Source of the DNA: Pseudomonadota bacterium
Lineage (GTDB): Bacteria > Pseudomonadota > Alphaproteobacteria > Rhodobacterales > Rhodobacteraceae
DNA: 64,000 bases
NCBI GenBank assembly: GCA_038532355.1
Contig: JBCBAT010000016.1
Coordinates: forward strand, 9,159 to 73,158
Direction of reading: 5' to 3'
A program made the position numbers and the translations under genes. The notes below the pieces were generated by a model. The model was not told the DNA's origin. It saw only the letters and a list, made by a program, of their open reading frames with translations, and made no database searches. Of the stretch, positions 48,416-59,130 are shown one piece after another (positions within the stretch are counted from its first letter, which is position 1; each line of letters opens with the position of its first letter).

Positions 48416-49780
48416 TCAGGCCGCTTCAAACGCGTGCTGTGACAGCGCCTCAAGCCCCTCACCCACCGCATTGATCACCACGTCCACCTGATCCCGCTCA
48501 ATGATCAGCGGCGGGCAAAACGCCATGGCGTCAATCATGGGGCGGGAAATCACACCGCGCGCGTAAAGCTCTTTGCCCATCGCCGCGCCCATCGCGCCGG
48601 GTTTCACTTCAATCTCCGGGTGATGCAGTTGCAGCGCCGCGATCAGCCCCACGCCGCGCGTCTCCCCCACGAAGGGATGATCGTCGAATTTCGCCAGCTT
48701 TTGCCGGAAGTAAGCGCCCGTCTCAGCCGCCTTTTCCACCAAGCCACGCTCTTCAATAATGGCGATGTTTTCCAACGCCACAGCCGCGCCAACAGGGTGC
48801 CCCGCGCCGGTGAACCCGTGGCCCAAAACACCAATGCGACCGCTTTCTTCGGCAATCGGTTCATAGAAGCGGTCATTCACCAGAATGGCGGAAAACGGCA
48901 CGTAGCTCGACGTGATTTGTTTTGACAAAACAATGACATCCGGCGTCAGATCATAGGTCTGCGACCCAAACATATTGCCCGTCCGCCCGAACCCGTTGAT
49001 CACCTCATCGGCCACGAAAATGATGTCATACTTGGCCAGCACCGCCTGCACCTTTTCCCAATAGGTCTCGGGCGGCACGACCACGCCGCCAGCGCCCATC
49101 ACAGGCTCGGCAAAGAAGGCCGCGATGGTATCCGGGCCTTCCTCCTGGATCATCCGATCCAGATCTTCAGCACAGCGCGTCGCGAATTCTTCTTCCGTTT
49201 CATCCTCCTGCCCCTCCTTCCAGTAATGCGGGCAAGTCGTGTGCAGCACGCCATCAATCGGCAGATCAAAGGAGGTATGGTTATAGGGCAATCCGGTCAG
49301 CGAGGCCGACGCTATCGTCACCCCATGGTAGCCCCGGATGCGCGAGATGAATTTCTTCTTCTGCGGCATCCCCATCGCGTTCGACCGATACCACAGCATT
49401 TTCATCACCGTATCATTGGCCTCCGACCCCGAGTTGGTGAAAAACGCCTTCGACATCGGCACCGGGGCCATGCTCACTAGCTTCTCCGCAAGATCAATCA
49501 CCGCCGGATGCGCGCGGTGGGCAAAGTTATGATAATACGCCATTTTTTCCATCTGCGCGGTGGCAGCGTTGATCAAACGCTTCTCCCCAAACCCTACGGC
49601 GACCGACCACAACCCCGCCATCGCCTCGATGTAGCGTTTGCCTTGGTTGTCGAAGACATACACCCCTTCCGCGTTCTCCATGATCTGCGGACCATGGTCG
49701 GCATGGGCCATCGCATTCGTGTAGGAATGGAAGTGGTAGGCGATGTCGCGGGCTTCAGCGGAATTCGGTGCAAGGGTCAT
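48416..49780 (-). CDS. Class III PLP aminotransferase (omega-amine/polyamine:pyruvate type)
   Basis: GLWSVAVG, FTNSGSEAND, RGYHGVT, FAEPVMGAGG, ADEVINGFGRTG, LSKQITS; AAGGA RBS before ATG 49780. Confidence 0.92.
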   Translation of the reverse strand: MTLAPNSAEARDIAYHFHSYTNAMAHADHGPQIMENAEGVYVFDNQGKRYIEAMAGLWSVAVGFGEKRLINAATAQMEKMAYYHNFAHRAHPAVIDLAEKLVSMAPVPMSKAFFTNSGSEANDTVMKMLWYRSNAMGMPQKKKFISRIRGYHGVTIASASLTGLPYNHTSFDLPIDGVLHTTCPHYWKEGQEDETEEEFATRCAEDLDRMIQEEGPDTIAAFFAEPVMGAGGVVVPPETYWEKVQAVLAKYDIIFVADEVINGFGRTGNMFGSQTYDLTPDVIVLSKQITSSYVPFSAILVNDRFYEPIAEESGRIGVLGHGFTGAGHPVGAAVALENIAIIEERGLVEKAAETGAYFRQKLAKFDDHPFVGETRGVGLIAALQLHHPEIEVKPGAMGAAMGKELYARGVISRPMIDAMAFCPPLIIERDQVDVVINAVGEGLEALSQHAFEAA

Positions 49781-51283: not shown

Positions 51284-53392
51284 ATGCAAACCGAATTGCC
51301 TTTCACTCGCGATCTTGTCCTTGTCGGCGGCGGTCATACCCATGCGCTGGTTCTGCACAAATGGGCGATGAACCCGCTGCCGGGTGCGCGGGTGACGCTG
51401 ATCAACCCAGGGCCGACAGCGCCTTATTCGGGCATGCTGCCGGGCTTCGTGGCTGGGCATTACACGCGGCAGGAGCTGGACATCGATCTGGTGCAATTGG
51501 CCCGCAAGGCAGGTGCGCGGCTGGTGATGGGATATGCGCATGGGATCGATGCAGACGCGCGGATGATACAGGTGACCGGCGCACCGGATGTGGCCTTTGA
51601 CGTGGCCGCCATAGACGTGGGCATCACATCCGCCATGCCCAACCTGCCGGGGTTTGCCGAACATGGTGTTCCCGCCAAACCGCTGGGTCGGTTTGCCGAG
51701 ATGTGGGAGGCCTATGCAGAACAGTCTGGTCCCGCCCATGTGGCCGTGCTGGGCAGCGGTGTGGCAGGCGCGGAATTGGCGCTGGCCATGGCGCACCGGC
51801 TGCGGACGCTCGGGCGCGATGCGACCATCCATGTGATTGATCGCAGCAACGCATTTACCGCAATTGGGCCGCGCGCCGCCAAACACCTGCGCGCGGCATT
51901 CAAGCGCTACAAGATCACGTTGATCGAAGGCGCGACCCCTGTGGCGATCACGAAGACCGGCGTGACGTTGGAGGACGGCACGGAGATTGAGGCCGATTTC
52001 GTCACCGGGGCGGCTGGCGCCAAACCCCATGACTGGTTGGCGGCCACGGGCCTGACGAATGGCGCAGGCTTCATCCCCGTCGACACCCGCCTGCGCAGCC
52101 CGGTCCATAGCATTTTTGCGGTGGGCGATTGCGCTGACATGACGGCCTCGCCAAGATCCAAGGCCGGGGTTTTTGCCGTGCGGCAAGCGCCTGTTCTTTT
52201 TGACAACCTGCGCGCGGCGCTCTCCACCGGGACGGGGCTGCGGGAATATGTGCCGCAGAAGGATTACCTCAAACTCATCTCTTTAGGCGAAAAATCCGCC
52301 TTGGCGGAACGATTTGGGGTGACGCTTGCGGGGCCTCTGCTGTGGCGCTGGAAGGATCAGATCGACACCAAATTTATGACGCAATTTCAGGGGTCTATGA
52401 AGGCCACCGCCCCTGCCCTGCCTTGGCCGCGCGCCAAGGGGGCGAGCCCTGAAAAACCCCTTTGCGGCGGTTGCGGGGCGAAGATCGGCATGCCTGCGCT
52501 GGCAGGTGCCTTGGGGCGTGACGGGTCCGTTGGCGACGATGCGGGTATATTGACCCGCAATCAGGTGATCAGCACCGATCATCTGCGTGCGATGGTGCTG
52601 GATCCGGTCACGCTGACGCGCATTGCGGCGGTGCATGCCTTGGGCGATGTCTGGGCCATGGGGGCCACGCCGCAAGCCGCGCTGACATCGGTGATCCTGC
52701 CCCAGCAATCCCCGCAACTGGCCGAACGGGCGCTGGCGGAAATTCATGCGGCGGCCCGTGACGTGATGGAGGAGGCAGGCGCGGAGATTGTGGGCGGGCA
52801 TTCCACGATAGGCGCGGAGATGACCATCGGATTCACGGTCACGGGCCTGCGCAAATCGAAACCCATCACGCTGGAGGGTGCGCGCCCGGGCGATGACCTG
52901 GTTCTGACCAAACCCATCGGCAGCGGCGTTCTTATGGCCGCCGAGATGATGGCCGAGGCCCGAGGCGCAGATGTCAGCGCGGCGCTGCGCTGGATGGTCC
53001 AGCCTCAGGGTGTCGCCGCGCGCCACCTTGCCGCCGCCCATGCGATGACGGATGTCACTGGATTTGGCCTCATGGGGCATCTGATGAATATGGCGCAAGC
53101 CTCGGGCGTGGGGGCAGAGGTGACGCTGGACGCTGTACCGCTGATGGGTGGCGCGCTGGCGCTGTCATCGCGCGGGGTGCGGTCGAGCCTTTATGCGCAG
53201 AACCGTGCGGGGTTTGATCATATCCCCGATACCGACCATCATGCGCTGCTTTTCGATCCGCAGACCGGGGGCGGGTTGTTGGCTGCGATCCCGGATGGTG
53301 CGCGCATCGTCGACGCCCTGCGCGGCGACGGGTTCGAGGCGGCGATCATAGGGCATATCACCGACAGCGCGGGTCAGATCGAAATTATCTGA
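51284..53392 (+). CDS. selD: Selenophosphate synthetase fused to an N-terminal NADH-dehydrogenase-like FAD domain
   Basis: N-terminal LVLVGGGHTH and FAVGDCA; C-terminal CGGCGAK, GDDAG, HALGDVWAMG, LTKPIGSG, TDVTGFGL, DPQTGGGLL. Confidence 0.92.
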   Translation: MQTELPFTRDLVLVGGGHTHALVLHKWAMNPLPGARVTLINPGPTAPYSGMLPGFVAGHYTRQELDIDLVQLARKAGARLVMGYAHGIDADARMIQVTGAPDVAFDVAAIDVGITSAMPNLPGFAEHGVPAKPLGRFAEMWEAYAEQSGPAHVAVLGSGVAGAELALAMAHRLRTLGRDATIHVIDRSNAFTAIGPRAAKHLRAAFKRYKITLIEGATPVAITKTGVTLEDGTEIEADFVTGAAGAKPHDWLAATGLTNGAGFIPVDTRLRSPVHSIFAVGDCADMTASPRSKAGVFAVRQAPVLFDNLRAALSTGTGLREYVPQKDYLKLISLGEKSALAERFGVTLAGPLLWRWKDQIDTKFMTQFQGSMKATAPALPWPRAKGASPEKPLCGGCGAKIGMPALAGALGRDGSVGDDAGILTRNQVISTDHLRAMVLDPVTLTRIAAVHALGDVWAMGATPQAALTSVILPQQSPQLAERALAEIHAAARDVMEEAGAEIVGGHSTIGAEMTIGFTVTGLRKSKPITLEGARPGDDLVLTKPIGSGVLMAAEMMAEARGADVSAALRWMVQPQGVAARHLAAAHAMTDVTGFGLMGHLMNMAQASGVGAEVTLDAVPLMGGALALSSRGVRSSLYAQNRAGFDHIPDTDHHALLFDPQTGGGLLAAIPDGARIVDALRGDGFEAAIIGHITDSAGQIEII

Positions 53393-54429
53393 AGCGCCGC
53401 TTTGACATCTTGTGCCACCGCAACCAACGCCTCTGGCGTGAGATCCTGAGCGGTGACACGCGCGGCAATCCGCGCTTCCTTGTCTTTCACAGAACTGGCA
53501 TAGGCCGGATCATAATGCTCCTCCGCCAAGGCCCGGCAGAGCGCCACGTCATCGCCTGCCTCGGACAGGGCGGCCCACCCATCGACCACCGCGTGACCCC
53601 GAAATTGCCGCAAGACATCCAGCTTTTCCATCAGCACGGCTTTGTCGGCCAGAATGTCCTTGTACGCCTCTGCCAGATACCGCGCGCGGGCCTCAAGCGG
53701 CGCTTCCAGCGCGATGATCGGGGCCGCGTTCATGGCCGCCCAAAGGGTTGGTGGCAAAAGCCGCTGCCCGATCTTGGAACTTTCAGCCTCCACCAACACG
53801 GGGCGCGTAGGATCAAGCCGGGTCAGCGCCATGGCTAGGGCAGTTTCGAAACCCTTCTGGCTGGGCTGAGGCGCGGCGCGGTCACCCAGAAGCGACCCGC
53901 GGTGATTGGCCAGCCCTTCCAGATCAAGGGTCTGCACGCCCATCCCAGCCAGCCGCGCCAGAAGATCGGTCTTCGCCGTGCCGGTATCGCCCGCCAACAG
54001 AATCAATTTGTGCGGCAGCGAATCATCATAAAGCGCGCGCACCACGAGGCGGCGGAAGGATTTGTAGCCACCTTCGATTGTGTCCGACCGCCAGCCGATT
54101 TCGCGCAGCATCCAGCCAAACGCGCCCGACCGCTGCCCCCCGCGCCAGCAATAGACCAAGGGCCGCCACCCGCCGTCGTGATGGGAAAGCGCGGTTTCGA
54201 TGTGATTTGCGGCGTTGCGAAACACCAGCGCGGCCCCGCGTTTGCGCGCGGTGAAGGGGGAGATCTGCTTGAATTCCGTCCCCACGAGCGCGCGTTCTTC
54301 GTCGTTCAGAACGGGCAGGTTGATCGCGCCGGGAACATGGTCTTCAGCAAATTCTGACGGGCTGCGCACGTCGATAATGGTGTCGAATTCCAATGCGTTG
54401 AGGTCGGACAAGGTGAGCAGGGTGATCAT
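53374..54429 (-). CDS. mnmH: tRNA 2-selenouridine(34) synthase
   Basis: Rhodanese IDVRSPSEF..YCWRGGQRS plus P-loop GDTGTAKT, LEGLANHRGSLLG, EAESSKIG. Confidence 0.95.
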   Translation of the reverse strand: MITLLTLSDLNALEFDTIIDVRSPSEFAEDHVPGAINLPVLNDEERALVGTEFKQISPFTARKRGAALVFRNAANHIETALSHHDGGWRPLVYCWRGGQRSGAFGWMLREIGWRSDTIEGGYKSFRRLVVRALYDDSLPHKLILLAGDTGTAKTDLLARLAGMGVQTLDLEGLANHRGSLLGDRAAPQPSQKGFETALAMALTRLDPTRPVLVEAESSKIGQRLLPPTLWAAMNAAPIIALEAPLEARARYLAEAYKDILADKAVLMEKLDVLRQFRGHAVVDGWAALSEAGDDVALCRALAEEHYDPAYASSVKDKEARIAARVTAQDLTPEALVAVAQDVKAALQIISI

Positions 54430-54481: not shown

Positions 54482-54579
54482 GGGGGCGCTGCCCCCGCCG
54501 CGTTCCGCGTCTCCCCCGGAGTATTTTCAGCCCAAAAGAAGCGGGCGCGTCAGGCTTCTTTCTGGCCATAAATACTCAA
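54482..54579 (+). repeat. REP-like family B, full compound copy
   Basis: GGGGGCGCTGCCCCC hairpin plus CTCCCCCGGAGTATTTTCAGCCCAAAAGAAG...CTTCTTTCTGGCCATAAATACTCAA. Confidence 0.85.
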
Positions 54580-54609: not shown

Positions 54610-55332
54610 TTATGGAGCGGGGCTGCGGTAGCTGGAGGTGAGCAGATGCGTGCCCTCTGACGTGGACCAACCAACGCGAGTGCCTTGGCGCAAGTAGGCC
54701 GTGTCACGTGCCGCGAAGACCTCTTTGCCTGCATCCGTTGTCAGGGTCAGCGCGCCCGCCAGAACCTGGATCAATAGATGGTCAGCGACCTGCAAGTCGG
54801 GGATCGTGACGGCAGAATGGGTGGATGTGCGCACCTGCATGGTGCCGGCCGCGTTCACGAAATCCACGCGCTCGGTCGTCACCGCGCCGGACGCCATCGC
54901 CGCGCCCGACAGATCCGGCACAGTGACGCGCGTCAGCGACGGGTTGCATCCAGTGTCTGGCACCGGGCCATCAAGGATCATGAAAAACTTGCGCAAATAG
55001 CCCGGCTGTTCCCACTGGCATTCCAGCCCTTTGGGGATGACGAAGGCATCGCCCGCCTTGAGGTTGATTTCCTCCCCATCCGGCATGCGCATGATCAGCG
55101 TGCCCTCCAGCAGATACATGAATTCATCGACGGTGTATTTGCCCATGTGATCGACGAAAGCCGTGTAATCCCACAGGCCCGCGATGTACCCCTCTGCCTC
55201 AATCTCATGATAGGTGTGGCCGTTCTGAACGGGGGTGCCGGAAAGCAATTCTGATGGCTCCATCTCTTCCCATCGCTCCATCCCCACGCCGGGCGGGCCA
55301 TCGCGGTGAAAGCGGGTGACTGCGTTGGTCAT
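54610..55332 (-). CDS. Tandem cupin-domain protein (EutQ/DUF861-like)
   Basis: GLWDYT..DEFMYLLEG..GDAFVIPKGLECQW first cupin; a degenerate second cupin follows. Confidence 0.8.
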   Translation of the reverse strand: MTNAVTRFHRDGPPGVGMERWEEMEPSELLSGTPVQNGHTYHEIEAEGYIAGLWDYTAFVDHMGKYTVDEFMYLLEGTLIMRMPDGEEINLKAGDAFVIPKGLECQWEQPGYLRKFFMILDGPVPDTGCNPSLTRVTVPDLSGAAMASGAVTTERVDFVNAAGTMQVRTSTHSAVTIPDLQVADHLLIQVLAGALTLTTDAGKEVFAARDTAYLRQGTRVGWSTSEGTHLLTSSYRSPAP

Positions 55333-55715
55333 GATGTTCCTTTCTTCAGAAATGGCACCTCGTCCTGCCAGCAGGTGAATATCTGATTGGCGGTGCGTGC
55401 ATACATGGCGGCATGTTCGCCGGTGACGGCGCGCATGCGGGCCTCGATATGGGCGTAGGCCGCATCCATATGGGCGCGGTCGCGGAAGGTGAGAATGGTG
55501 AAGAACTGGTGGTTGCGGTCTTCATCGGTGTCCATGGGCGTGTCAGAGACGCGCCGTCCCATGGGGCGGGCATCGATGATGAGATCCGCGTCATAGAGTT
55601 CCTGCACGAAGACGCGGTAGGCCTCAGTAAAGCTGGCTTCGTCCTGCCCGGGGCGCAGATCAAAAGTGGAAAGCAGATGGATCTGGCCCACCGGGTCTGC
55701 GTCTTTGGGGCTCAT
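55329..55715 (-). CDS. Small hypothetical protein, possibly a dimeric alpha+beta barrel
   Basis: 128 aa, 4-nt overlaps with both neighbours; beta-alpha-beta-beta-alpha pattern (FDLRPG..FRDRAHMDAAY). The fold is a guess. Confidence 0.65.
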   Translation of the reverse strand: MSPKDADPVGQIHLLSTFDLRPGQDEASFTEAYRVFVQELYDADLIIDARPMGRRVSDTPMDTDEDRNHQFFTILTFRDRAHMDAAYAHIEARMRAVTGEHAAMYARTANQIFTCWQDEVPFLKKGTS

Positions 55716-57799
55716 TCAGCGGCTCCGGGAAGCGAAACCACTTGAGCGGGGGTGTGCCAGTTGTCGGACAGTTCTGAGAGTTCGCGGTCAAAGGGCACGC
55801 CGTCGACCGCAGGCTCGCCCATTTCGCGGGCGGCGCGGTGGCCGGAATAGATGGCGGCGGCGATCGTGCCCGGGCCTAGTGCGTCGCCGATGCGGGTGAC
55901 GTTGGGCGTCCCCGCAGCAACCAGCGCGTCATAGAGCGCATCCACGGGGCGGCGCATGGTGACGAGGACGGTCGTGGCGGTCTTCAAGGTCGTCTCGCGA
56001 CCTGTGTAGACGCATTCCAGGATCGCCTCCTGCCCACGCAATTCGTGGATGTTTTGGGTGAGGTGCAGATGGACACCTGCCTCCATCAGCTTTTTCTGGA
56101 TGAAATGCTGTTCGAGCGTGTGGTTTGTCCAACCCGACACTTCCGCGCCGGGGGTGACGAAATGCACGTCACAGCCCGCCAAAAGCAGTTTTTCGGCGAT
56201 GGCCCCGCCCATATAGAAATGATCATCGTCAAAGACCACGACCGGCCCGTCCGGCACCACACCAGCCATGATATCTTCGACGGACGTCAGCGCAGCATCG
56301 TCGGCAATCGTGATGCCCGTTGGGTTTTGCCGCCCCACCCCGTCCTGAGACCATTTGGCGCCCGTCGCGATCAGGATCTGATCGGCCCCGAATTCCTGCA
56401 CGGCGGCAGCGTCCAACTCGCTATTGAGGTACAGATCCACGTTGGGCATCTGGCTGATCTGATAGATCCGATAGTCGACCGCCCGGCCCCATTCATTGAG
56501 CCCCGGAAGACGGCGTTCGCCGATGAGCCGCCCGCCCGCTTCATCCCGCGCATCGGCGAGTGTCACCTGATAGCCGCGCTGGCCCAAGGCGCGGGCCGCC
56601 TCCAGACCCGCAGGCCCTGCGCCCACGATCAAAACACTATCTTGCGTCTTGGCGGGCGCGATGCGTTCGGGGTGCCAGCCGCGCCGCCATTCTTCGCCCA
56701 TCGTGGGGTTCTGGGTGCAGCGGATGGGGACGAATTGGTGGTCGCCCGATACACAGATGTTGCAGCCGATGCATTCGCGGATGTCCTCAATGCGGCCCTC
56801 TTCGATCTTTTTGGGAAGGAACGGATCGGCAATGGAGGGACGCGCCGCGCCGATGAAATCGAGGCGGCCTGACTTGATCAGCGACACCATCGCATCGGGC
56901 GAGGTGTAGCGCCCCACGCCCACCACGGGTTTCGTGGTCACGGATTTGACGAAAGCGACATAGTCATCCTGAAAGCCCGATTGTTTGAACCGCGACGTGG
57001 CGCTGTCATGTTCCCAGCCGGAGATATTCACATCCCAAAGATCGGGCTCTTCGGCCATCATCTCGATGAAATCGCGCCCCTCGCCCTCGGAGGTGAAGCC
57101 ATCGTCACCCATCAACTCATCGACGGCAAAGCGCACAGCCACGGCGCAGGTGTCGCCCACGGCATCCTTTGTATCGGCCAGAATTTCACGGAAAAGCCGC
57201 GCACGGTTTTCCAGGGAACCGCCATATTCATCCGTGCGGTGATTGCGGTAGGGCGACAGGAAATGCGACATGGTCGACAGGTGATGGGCGACGTAGACAT
57301 AGACAATGTCATACCCCGCGCGCTTGGCCCTGAGGGCGGCATCGCGGTGCCATTTGCGCAGTGCTTTGATGTCGGTTTTGTCCATCGCGCGGGCCTGCAC
57401 GGGGTCGCCCGTGACAACCGGATGATGCGAAGGCGCAAGCGGGATTTCACGGCTGAAATTGCTGGAGGTGGTCATGCCCGCATGGTTCAGCTCCGCCCCC
57501 GCGAGGCTGCCAAACTCATGAATGCCCTCGCACATGCGCGCGTGGTAGGGGATATCGCGATCATCCCAGAGCCGCCCACCGGCCCAGGGTGTGTGATCGG
57601 CGGAAGGGTGGATTTCGATCTCTTCGGTGCAGATGACAGCCCAGCCGCCCTCGGCCTTGGTTCGGCGCATTTCGGCCATTGAGGACGGAAATGTGCGGCC
57701 CATACCGTTGCAATGAGGCACCTGGTAGAAGCGGTTGCGCGCGGTCACGGGCCCGATTTTGACCGGCTCGAACAGGATGTCGTAGCGTGGATCCCTCAT
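55712..57799 (-). CDS. Trimethylamine/dimethylamine/histamine dehydrogenase-family iron-sulfur flavoprotein
   Basis: RNRFYQVPHC (covalent-FMN Cys), YVAH, RTDEYGGSLENR, CIGCNIC-x11-C 4Fe-4S motif, IVGAGPAGLEAA ADP-binding; start ATG 57799. Confidence 0.9.
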   Translation of the reverse strand: MRDPRYDILFEPVKIGPVTARNRFYQVPHCNGMGRTFPSSMAEMRRTKAEGGWAVICTEEIEIHPSADHTPWAGGRLWDDRDIPYHARMCEGIHEFGSLAGAELNHAGMTTSSNFSREIPLAPSHHPVVTGDPVQARAMDKTDIKALRKWHRDAALRAKRAGYDIVYVYVAHHLSTMSHFLSPYRNHRTDEYGGSLENRARLFREILADTKDAVGDTCAVAVRFAVDELMGDDGFTSEGEGRDFIEMMAEEPDLWDVNISGWEHDSATSRFKQSGFQDDYVAFVKSVTTKPVVGVGRYTSPDAMVSLIKSGRLDFIGAARPSIADPFLPKKIEEGRIEDIRECIGCNICVSGDHQFVPIRCTQNPTMGEEWRRGWHPERIAPAKTQDSVLIVGAGPAGLEAARALGQRGYQVTLADARDEAGGRLIGERRLPGLNEWGRAVDYRIYQISQMPNVDLYLNSELDAAAVQEFGADQILIATGAKWSQDGVGRQNPTGITIADDAALTSVEDIMAGVVPDGPVVVFDDDHFYMGGAIAEKLLLAGCDVHFVTPGAEVSGWTNHTLEQHFIQKKLMEAGVHLHLTQNIHELRGQEAILECVYTGRETTLKTATTVLVTMRRPVDALYDALVAAGTPNVTRIGDALGPGTIAAAIYSGHRAAREMGEPAVDGVPFDRELSELSDNWHTPAQVVSLPGAAE

Positions 57800-57870
57800 A
57801 TGTGCCCCCCTGGGTTTTCGTCTGCCTTGCGGGTTTTCAAGGAAGATAGGACGGTTGCGCAGCTGGGTCC

Positions 57871-57888
57871 ATTGAATAATCATTCAAT
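57871..57888. promoter_or_regulatory. Perfect palindrome ATTGAAT-AATC-ATTCAAT, operator candidate
   Basis: 7-bp arms centred in the 152-bp divergent dehydrogenase / acyl-CoA dehydrogenase gap. Confidence 0.55.
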
Positions 57889-57951: not shown

Positions 57952-59130
57952 ATGGAGTTTACAAGAGCCGGGATTTCAGATCGCGCGTTGGAGATTGCCG
58001 ACCGGGTAGAGAGCTTCGTGCGCGATTTGGTCGTGCCCTATGAAGGCGACGCGCGGGTGAGCTTTCACGGGCCATCAGACGAGATGGCGCTAGAGTTGAA
58101 GAGCCTTGCGCGGGAGGCGGGTGTGCTGACGCCGCACATTCTGGAGGATGCCAGCCACCTGACCCAGCGGGAGACGGCTGCGGTGTTGATGCGATCGGGC
58201 CTGTCGATCCTGGGGCCGCTTGCCTGCAACACGGCTGCGCCGGACGAAGGGAATATGCTGCTGATCGGCAAGGTGGGCAGCGCAGAGATGAAAGAGCGGT
58301 TTCTGGAGCCACTGGTGCGCGGCGAAAAACGCTCTGCCTTCTTCATGACGGAACCTGCATCTGAGGGCGGCGCAGGGTCCGATCCGATGATGCTGAAAAC
58401 CACCTGCGTGCCGGATGGCAATCACTGGGTGATCAACGGACGCAAAGCGTTCATCACGGGTGCTGATGGCGCGGGCGTGGGGATTGTGATGGCCAAAGCC
58501 GAGGAAGGCGCCTGCATGTTCCTCGTCGATCTGCCCCACCCGGCCATCCGGGTTGAGCGCGTGCTGGACACAATCGACAACGCCATGCCGGGCGGCCATT
58601 CAGTGGTGGCGATCGACAACCTGCGCCTGCCTGCCGATCAGATGCTTGGCGAGGCAGGCGAAGGGTTCAAATATGCGCAAGTCCGCCTTGGGCCAGCGCG
58701 GCTGTCGCACTGCATGCGCTGGCTTGGGGCCTGCGTGCGTGCGCAGGAGATCGCGACGGATTACGCCAACCGGCGCGAGGCGTTTGGTAAGCGGCTCATT
58801 GACCACGAAGGCGTGGGCTTCATGCTGGCCGAAAACGAAATTGACCTGCGCGCGGCAGAACAAATGACCTATTGGTGCGCCGATGTGCTGGACAGCGGCG
58901 CGCGCGGCACGTCGGAGAGTTCCTCGGCCAAGGTGTTTGTCTCCGAGGCGCTGATGCGTGTGGCGGATAGATGCGTGCAATGCATGGGCGGCACGGGCGT
59001 GACGCAGGATACGATGGTCGAACAGGTCTTCCGCGAACTGCGCGCGTTCCGCATTTATGACGGCCCCACGGAAGTGCACAAATGGAGCCTTGCCAAGAAG
59101 ATCAAGCGCGATTGGGAGCGGGGCCGGTAG
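57952..59130 (+). CDS. Acyl-CoA dehydrogenase (ACAD10/11, FadE-like)
   Basis: NTAAPDEGNM, FFMTEP, WVINGRKAFITG, RLGPARLSHCMR, RIYDGPTEVHK. Confidence 0.93.
   Translation: MEFTRAGISDRALEIADRVESFVRDLVVPYEGDARVSFHGPSDEMALELKSLAREAGVLTPHILEDASHLTQRETAAVLMRSGLSILGPLACNTAAPDEGNMLLIGKVGSAEMKERFLEPLVRGEKRSAFFMTEPASEGGAGSDPMMLKTTCVPDGNHWVINGRKAFITGADGAGVGIVMAKAEEGACMFLVDLPHPAIRVERVLDTIDNAMPGGHSVVAIDNLRLPADQMLGEAGEGFKYAQVRLGPARLSHCMRWLGACVRAQEIATDYANRREAFGKRLIDHEGVGFMLAENEIDLRAAEQMTYWCADVLDSGARGTSESSSAKVFVSEALMRVADRCVQCMGGTGVTQDTMVEQVFRELRAFRIYDGPTEVHKWSLAKKIKRDWERGR

Follow-up and report, generated by a model that had tools for sequence, protein, structure and literature searches.

A three-gene operon for a flavoenzyme of the amine dehydrogenase family and its candidate operator, shared with a second locus, in a Rhodobacteraceae genome

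Organization of the operon

The window analysed here is a stretch of 64,000 nucleotides from a Rhodobacteraceae assembly (GCA_038532355.1, contig JBCBAT010000016.1, positions 9,159 to 73,158). It carries a minus-strand operon of three genes for a flavoenzyme of the amine dehydrogenase family, a DUF6614 protein and a bicupin, preceded by a palindromic candidate operator (Table 1). As stated in a preliminary description of this DNA, the three genes are coupled by 4-nt overlaps; the open reading frames and the ATGA sequence at both junctions bear this out. A Shine-Dalgarno sequence at 57805-57811 serves the dehydrogenase start at 57799. The N-termini of homologues agree with this start, and solved homologues begin there. 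An alternative 723-aa frame was rejected, as its start would fall inside the operator. With 60-62%, the GC content of the operon equals that of the rest of the genome and does not indicate a foreign origin. The identical gene order occurs in 5 other genomes or metagenome-assembled genomes (MAGs) with 80-94% identity and partly different flanks, and also in metagenome contigs, so that the three genes do co-occur elsewhere. An NCBIfam search of the three proteins returned no equivalog. A search of plasmids returned no full-length match of the bicupin and no match of the dehydrogenase at the level of its own clade (best about 57-60%).

Table 1. Features of the operon and its surroundings (positions in the window)
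Feature	Position	Strand	Remarks
Clade-A2 amine dehydrogenase gene	55712-57799	-	695 aa, subfamily of histamine dehydrogenase, trimethylamine dehydrogenase and Pno; predicted 6-S-cysteinyl-FMN, [4Fe-4S], ADP
DUF6614 gene	55329-55715	-	128 aa, alpha+beta-barrel (ABM/Dabb) fold
DUF861/Cupin_3 bicupin gene	54610-55332	-	240 aa
18-bp palindromic operator	57871-57888		ATTGAAT-N4-ATTCAAT; candidate site of BetI-like TetR repressor
Putative sigma-70 promoter	57843-57871	-	TGGACC, 17 nt, TATCTT; -35 abuts operator; inferred
Downstream inverted repeats	54482-54577	-	possible transcript end
Divergent acyl-CoA dehydrogenase	57952-59130	+	neighbour, probably not in pathway

The large flavoenzyme

The large protein consists of a TIM-barrel FMN domain (Pfam Oxidored_FMN) and Rossmann domains. 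The motifs named in the preliminary description are all present: FYQVPHC with Cys30, Y169-V-A-H172 and the Fe-S cysteines C343/C346/C349/C361 (CxxCxxC-x11-C); a GAGPAG motif for ADP binding is found in addition. Scores against PDB entries are 767 bits for 3K30 and 753 for 6DE6, both histamine dehydrogenases (HaDH), 722 for 6L6J (Pno), 529 for 1DJN, trimethylamine dehydrogenase (TMADH), and 132 for DCR, the 2,4-dienoyl-CoA reductase. These scores support the proposed membership in the HaDH/TMADH/Pno subfamily, and the grouping with enoate or dienoyl-CoA reductases that would have spoken against it is not seen. Within the 2-enoate reductase (2-ER) group, these amine enzymes make up cluster 3, in which a His substitutes the reductase Tyr (PMC11759058). 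The triad Y169-H172-D265 of the window enzyme has this His, and it is invariant in the 120 closest homologues.

Trees were computed from 173 and 51 sequences and anchored by a Rhizobium gallicum protein (L159, ~97% identical to 6DE6), the Paracoccus aminovorans protein of dimethylamine dehydrogenase (DMADH) type and Shinella ndpC. The query falls into a clade of its own, A2 (support 97), which is nested together with the paralogues A1 in a larger uncharacterised clade (support 100). HaDH (99), Pno, the TMADH branch and another clade, B (100), are placed apart from A2. Invariant among the 120 closest homologues are C30, Y169, H172, R223, W262, D265, D353, W72, G74, N105 and L174; at E60, H69 and each of the four Fe-S cysteines no more than one homologue deviates. 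The pocket of A2 is thus E60/H69/W72/G74/D353. From the invariant Cys30 we infer that FMN is covalently attached as 6-S-cysteinyl-FMN. The genome encodes electron-transferring flavoprotein (ETF) and its quinone oxidoreductase ETF-QO, in keeping with the electron acceptor predicted earlier, as well as an orthologue of the trimethylamine monooxygenase Tmm. Based on the family, the pocket replacements and the presence of these genes, the enzyme very likely dehydrogenates an amine that is larger than trimethylamine (TMA) or dimethylamine (DMA) and is not histamine.

The two small proteins

Predicted structures uphold the earlier designations of the small proteins as barrel-like and as a tandem cupin. 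The 128-aa protein matches PF20319 (DUF6614) with 30.4 bits at a cut-off of 25. Its model (pLDDT 83) matches SnoaB with a Z of 11.4 and an rmsd of 2.4 over 97 residues; many ABM/Dabb folds score as high, and Atlas searches returned only DUF6614, ABM and Dabb names. The protein is therefore predicted to have a dimeric alpha+beta-barrel fold of ABM/Dabb type, the dimer being derived from the fold match. Its invariant positions are a TPMDTD loop, R55, R80, H101 and CW-D. In the 240-aa protein, Cupin_3 matches in two stretches, and the model (pLDDT 96.7) finds its best match in PSPTO_0244 (3MYX), by fold as well as by profile. The cupin metal ligands (HxH...E and H) are absent: the motif-1 His positions are Y66/D69, the motif-2 position is an invariant C105, and no His is conserved above 80%. 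Invariant residues of the N-terminal barrel are Q36/W54/D69/E70/C105/W107/K115, and E70, C105, K115, W54 and W107 among them line a polar pocket. Binding or processing of an imine or aldehyde is most plausibly the putative role of both proteins. A complex prediction of the bicupin with the DUF6614 dimer scored 0.02 and is not used as evidence.

In 300 sampled genomes of the family there are five DUF6614 matches, one of them degenerate, and each has a family dehydrogenase no more than 10 kb away. Of 80 metagenome loci with DUF6614, 29 include such a dehydrogenase (17 of 29 contigs of at least 5 kb); DUF6614 follows clade B in 25 of the 80 loci and A2 in 10. This preference for clade B over A2 fits an action in trans. 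In Roseovarius sp. SYSU LYC5162 (L044:16791-17882), a single open frame runs through DUF6614 and bicupin without a stop; this read-through frame is weak evidence of a fusion because the cupin keeps its own internal ribosome site. On plasmid IV of Paracoccus aminovorans a small cupin (L157:10374-10730) follows the DMADH-type gene, which suggests that cupins are general companions of the enzyme family.

Operator, promoter and candidate repressor

The operator lies 72 bp upstream of the dehydrogenase start codon. It has one match in the window, where 0.01 are expected, and three exact copies plus one near copy in the genome, with none in shuffled sequences. A matrix derived from other genomes, but with the window motif as its seed, scores the four genome sites at 30-35 bits, and the next best site at 16. 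The same matrix places a site directly before the binding protein, cupin or first dehydrogenase gene in ~30 loci that have a TetR cluster. The four genome copies precede the window operon, the divergently transcribed binding-protein and amine-oxidase genes of a second locus on contig C9, a 124-aa ChrR-type cupin (G000:C34:25735) and an exported protein; the last site (G000:C19:43442) is situated between two exported proteins of no known family. The operator footprint is conserved in six genomes, and so are both hexamer regions of the putative promoter. With 8 of 12 consensus matches the promoter stays below the threshold of the promoter scan and was therefore not listed by it. A second operator is found before a CoxMSL-like molybdenum hydroxylase (L217 at G305:C1:3842507; also L048, L049, L087 and L209). 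In other genomes this hydroxylase, a candidate aldehyde oxidoreductase, adjoins the cluster.

The repressor of the 18-bp site is likely the BetI-like TetR encoded in the cluster, with binding predicted from sequence; C9 encodes two such TetRs. The choline BetI box of Alphaproteobacteria has 14 bp, ATTGACG-CGTCAAT (PMC12442346). In the window genome a box of this type is located before its own betI, separate from the 18-bp sites. Control of the window operon by choline BetI was rejected on these grounds.

Partner locus on contig C9

The second locus spans G000:C9:25.4-40.2 kb. It encodes a binding protein, permeases and an ATPase, a TetR, a clade B dehydrogenase, a ferritin-like gene and an agmatine-deiminase-like (AguA-like) gene that ends its operon. 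It further contains an amine oxidase, a PuuB/AmaA-like oxidase, the second TetR, a PRK07036 transaminase, PhyH, GNAT and a PEAMT-like methyltransferase, and adjoins MttB, GcvT-type and apparent carnitine genes. It lacks precisely the A2, DUF6614 and cupin genes. The clade B pocket has Y60, D69, S74, W105 and Y174 as in TMADH; Trp355 is not kept. Here (G000:C9:25402-27945; L148:9370-11961) and in L037, L045, L048, L051, L057 and L141, clade B is followed by or fused to a domain of ~160 aa with ferritin/rubrerythrin-like features and no Pfam family, which may be an electron acceptor or a peroxide sink.

The binding protein belongs to the PotD family. The polyamine carboxylates of PotD, which we take to be E36, D168, E171 and D257, are replaced by G, S/A/T, D and C in 22 of 22 sequences, so that three of the four (E36, D168, D257) are lost, while five PotD aromatics are kept. 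Another PotD-family protein in the window genome retains the polyamine carboxylates.

Gene context in relatives and origin of the split

We examined 45 loci with close homologues of the A2 enzyme. ABC permeases are present in 28 of them, a cupin likewise in 28, a BetI-like TetR in 27 and a PotD-family binding protein in 21 plus 5. Two or three dehydrogenase paralogues stand in tandem in 27 of the loci; amine oxidase (19), class III transaminase (17) and DUF6614 (13) are less frequent. Below ~75% identity to the window enzyme, the gene lies within a larger cluster, with the typical intact order TetR, A1, A2, B, a reductase-type Old Yellow Enzyme (OYE), DUF6614, cupin and transaminase. Clade B is often fused to a ferritin-like domain in these intact clusters, which are present in the cultured strains Roseovarius indicus, R. 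faecimaris and R. aestuarii, among others. Their reductase-type OYE (L040:14861-16816 and kin) carries an SHGY motif and is mycofactocin-OYE2-like; the window genome is without it.

In ~30 other marine alphaproteobacterial loci, the parts of the window operon and of C9 form one cluster with the 18-bp site. Together with the shared operator, this makes the window operon most likely a detached module of one regulon. The split recurs in two congeners, G319, which has both operators, and G311, where an operator is seen at the window-type locus; in six other congeners A2 and B are side by side. A simple split of one cluster was rejected: the C9 genes are mostly closest to clusters that have only clade B, and the window genes to A2-type clusters. 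As the nearest clusters differ between the two loci, we regard them as remnants of sister clusters that complement each other. One MAG with the label Candidatus Salinivivens marinus (L046) contains an A2-cupin-methyltransferase block that is highly similar to the one in a small Rhodobacteraceae-level genome (L147), a likeness due to mis-binning or transfer.

Neighbouring genes

The acyl-CoA dehydrogenase that diverges from the operon is probably a bystander. Only in the split sub-lineage does it stand beside A2 (in 5 of the 45 loci with close homologues). Directly downstream of the operon, SelD is fused to an N-terminal pyridine-nucleotide oxidoreductase domain (51284-54429) and is convergent with SelU (18-nt overlap). 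A PRK06105 class III omega-transaminase (48416-49777) lies 5 kb downstream on the same strand, has no operator and is syntenic in close kin only. Between operon and SelD there is an imperfect inverted repeat of 24 bp (54519-54577), and a GC hairpin with a T-rich tail at 54496-54482; the number of hairpins in the region is not above chance. A sequence similar to the inverted repeat is located upstream of betI on contig C36, perhaps a REP-like element.

Proposed pathway and substrate

The best explanation overall is that the window operon is a module of an amine-catabolic regulon under a BetI-like TetR, the rest of which is on C9. We propose this tentatively, at somewhat short of an even chance. 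It starts from the observed enzyme family, motifs, folds, co-occurrence and operator. Cofactor attachment, use of ETF, repressor identity, substrate class, order of steps and roles of the helpers are predictions in the following scheme. The PotD-family ABC system would import a cationic amine of larger size, most likely a di- or polyamine that is N-methylated or N-alkylated, and this amine would free the 18-bp operator from its repressor, so that both loci are expressed. The clade B paralogue on C9 (TMADH-like Y60/D69/S74/W105/Y174) would take N-methyl groups off the tertiary amine, and the A2 enzyme would oxidise the CH2-N bond of the less-substituted amine. The hydride would pass to 6-S-Cys30-FMN with the help of Y169/H172/D265, then via [4Fe-4S] and ETF to ETF-QO and quinone. 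The imine would hydrolyse to an aldehyde and a smaller amine, with barrel and metal-free bicupin binding or processing the reactive imine or aldehyde, and the products would be finished by transaminase, PuuB-like oxidase and aldehyde dehydrogenases.

Our first candidate for the substrate is such a di- or polyamine with N-methyl or N-alkyl groups, again with slightly less than even confidence. It is favoured by the polyamine-type genes (PotD family, AguA-like, PuuB/AmaA-like, PuuC-like, PAO/LSD-like oxidase) together with the lost PotD carboxylates, and by the hints at methylated amines, namely the BetI-like TetR, the PEAMT-like methyltransferase and the TMADH-like clade B. A more specific version is a pathway dedicated to N-methylated polyamines, e.g. 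fragments of methylated long-chain polyamines from diatom silica, in which each of the paralogous Fe-S flavoenzymes would act on amines of a certain degree of N-substitution and the two cofactor-free helpers would take imines and aldehydes. In this specific form the idea is speculative and rather improbable. A limited literature search gave no bacterial genes for an N-methylated-polyamine route.

Several findings weigh against the regulon and this substrate. Enzyme activity, expression and operator binding are all predicted. Since window and C9 descend from different sister clusters, the two loci may be co-regulated and yet not act in sequence. Two operator copies precede unrelated-looking genes, the ChrR-type cupin and the exported protein. 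With E. coli PotD, the binding protein has just ~22% identity, and a second binding protein in some A2 clusters keeps E36 and D257. In 12 of the 29 contigs of at least 5 kb, no family dehydrogenase is near DUF6614, and those checked have unrelated surroundings. E60 is not diagnostic, because it is common across the uncharacterised family.

The same regulon could serve a polyamine or diamine without methyl groups (spermidine, norspermidine, cadaverine, agmatine) that is cut at an internal or terminal C-N bond. The PotD-family transporter, the AguA-like gene at the end of the C9 operon and the PuuB-, PuuC- and SpuC-like neighbours suit such a substrate, and histamine dehydrogenases oxidise agmatine, putrescine and diaminopropane (PMC10180351). 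However, the main binding protein has lost three of the four polyamine carboxylates that the other genomic PotD-family protein keeps, and A2 is without Glu74/79 of HaDH. We consider this unlikely, and to the same degree a biogenic amine or alkaloid with an aromatic ring or a heterocycle (hordenine/N-methyltyramine series, gramine, N-methylpyrrolidine or piperidine types), of which B, A2 and A1 would take the tertiary, secondary and primary forms. The pocket formed by W72/H69 with G74 is roomy and stackable, the binding protein has an aromatic cage, and some clusters include Rieske and molybdenum hydroxylase genes. E60/H69/L174 are as in Pno, which cleaves the CH2-NHCH3 bond of an N-methyl secondary amine and passes the electrons to ETF (PMC7688666). 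Against this stands that no ring-cleavage genes are conserved in the cluster, and that AguA-like and omega-transaminase genes are better suited to aliphatic chains.

Slightly less probable again is an N-methylated amino alcohol such as dimethyl- or methyl-ethanolamine from lipid head groups. It would account for the BetI-like regulator, the PEAMT-like methyltransferase, a cupin family related to EutQ and a PRK06148-type enzyme near C9. The PRK06148-type gene, however, is part of an adjoining convergent operon and is not conserved in the clusters, and larger amines accord with the PotD-type transporter and with an amine oxidase whose leader is Tat-like.

The remaining alternatives concern the operon itself. 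The preliminary description suggested that the acyl-CoA dehydrogenase may be part of the same pathway, and a stand-alone operon acting with it would explain the divergent layout that five kin share in spite of differences in other flanks. This is very unlikely, as no intact cluster contains the gene, its conserved promoter is separate and stands at varying distances from the operator, and a 75% orthologue in the congener G303 adjoins an APH kinase instead. The preliminary description also suggested an O2-independent route for a (methyl)amine, in contrast to Tmm. A bypass of Tmm through a true TMA/DMA dehydrogenase we rate as lower still: the enzyme has Cys30, W262, the catalytic triad and the Fe-S ligands in common with TMADH, but the substrate is unsupported because the TMA pocket residues are substituted (Y60->E, S74->G, W105->N, W355->D) and Tmm is present, and identity to the TMADH/DMADH branch is ~41%, with a separate position in the tree. 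An enoate or 2,4-dienoyl-CoA reductase can practically be dismissed, since only the fold family (PF00724) speaks for it, and the bit scores, the His of cluster 3 in place of the reductase Tyr (PMC11759058) and the fact that in the intact cluster another gene is the reductase-type one all speak against it. In sum, enzyme family and co-occurrence stand as first described, the TMA/DMA route and the acyl-CoA dehydrogenase do not, and the shared operator and the C9 partner cluster had been missed.

Significance

Members of the dehydrogenase family occur in 85 of 301 sampled Rhodobacteraceae-level genomes, most with pockets unlike those of TMADH or histamine dehydrogenase, and clade A2 is well represented in marine metagenome assemblies. 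Some members are labelled 'dimethylamine/trimethylamine dehydrogenase', which could inflate estimates of methylamine cycling. The operon belongs to a known enzyme family, but its clade is uncharacterised and its regulon apparently undescribed. The operator and the split regulon are new here, and a literature search of incomplete coverage gave no description of the cluster. The operator offers a handle: the ligand of the TetR would name the substrate of the whole cluster, would give first functions to DUF6614 and this bicupin, and might reveal an overlooked marine nitrogen currency. The split is also an example of one regulon assembled from remnants of two sister clusters.

Comparison with known systems

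The 18-bp system resembles the BetI regulons (PMC12442346) in its TetR_C_6 regulators, the ATTGA...TCAAT ends of its site and the overlap with the -35 region. It differs in the length of the site (18 versus 14 bp) and in that no bet genes are among its targets; the cluster TetRs score 111-116 bits against a BetI cut-off of 201. With PotABCD and the Puu/Spu/Pau systems, the regulon shares a PotD-family ABC transporter and PuuB-like, PuuC-like, omega-transaminase and AguA-like genes, all hits of polyamine type except PRK07036 being below the equivalog cut-offs. Unlike these systems, it has Fe-S flavoprotein dehydrogenase paralogues, a BetI-like regulator and a binding protein without E36, D168 and D257. 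PSPTO_0244 (3MYX), SnoaB, OAC and PeHNL share the folds of the two small proteins at 7-19% identity in fold alignments, and a fold in common with PSPTO_0244 or the ABM/Dabb barrels indicates no function.

TMADH and DMADH (1DJN; Paracoccus aminovorans DMADH-type) have the cofactor motifs, the triad and TMADH W264 (W262 in A2) in common with the A2 enzyme, which is ~35 aa shorter and does not fall within their branch in the trees, a branch that is long among the references. Tyr60 or Gln60, Trp264 and Trp355 presumably form the aromatic bowl of these enzymes, with Ser/Thr74 and Trp/Phe105 as specificity residues. TMADH-like Y60/S74/W105 belong to the C9 paralogue of clade B and not to A2.

The best structural relatives of A2 are the histamine dehydrogenases (Nocardioides simplex, 3K30; Rhizobium sp. 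4-9, 6DE6), with the same length and domains and ~52% identity to the 6DE6 proxy. Cys30, the Tyr/His/Asp triad, Trp262 and Asp353 are kept. The alignment to L159 shows that the HaDH pocket (Gln60, Ile69, Phe72, Glu74, Asn110, Phe/Tyr176) is absent from A2, with the replacements Gln60->Glu, Ile69->His, Phe72->Trp, Glu74->Gly, Asn110->Thr/Met and Phe176->Leu (Rhizobium numbering, PMC10180351). HaDH and A2 form separate clades (support 99 and 97) and differ in gene context. Apparent true histamine-dehydrogenase orthologues with the full Rhizobium pocket occur in many roseobacters (L022, L024, L025, L029, L030, L160).

The 6-hydroxypseudooxynicotine dehydrogenase Pno/HisD (6L6J; Shinella ndpC) differs from A2 in lacking Cys30, its FMN being non-covalent, and its D74 and Y131 are not kept in A2; nicotine genes are absent around the A2 operon. 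At 51% identity the two share E60, H69 and L174, and with its ETF-linked cleavage of a CH2-NH(CH3) bond (PMC7688666), Pno is the closest functional model for the A2 enzyme.

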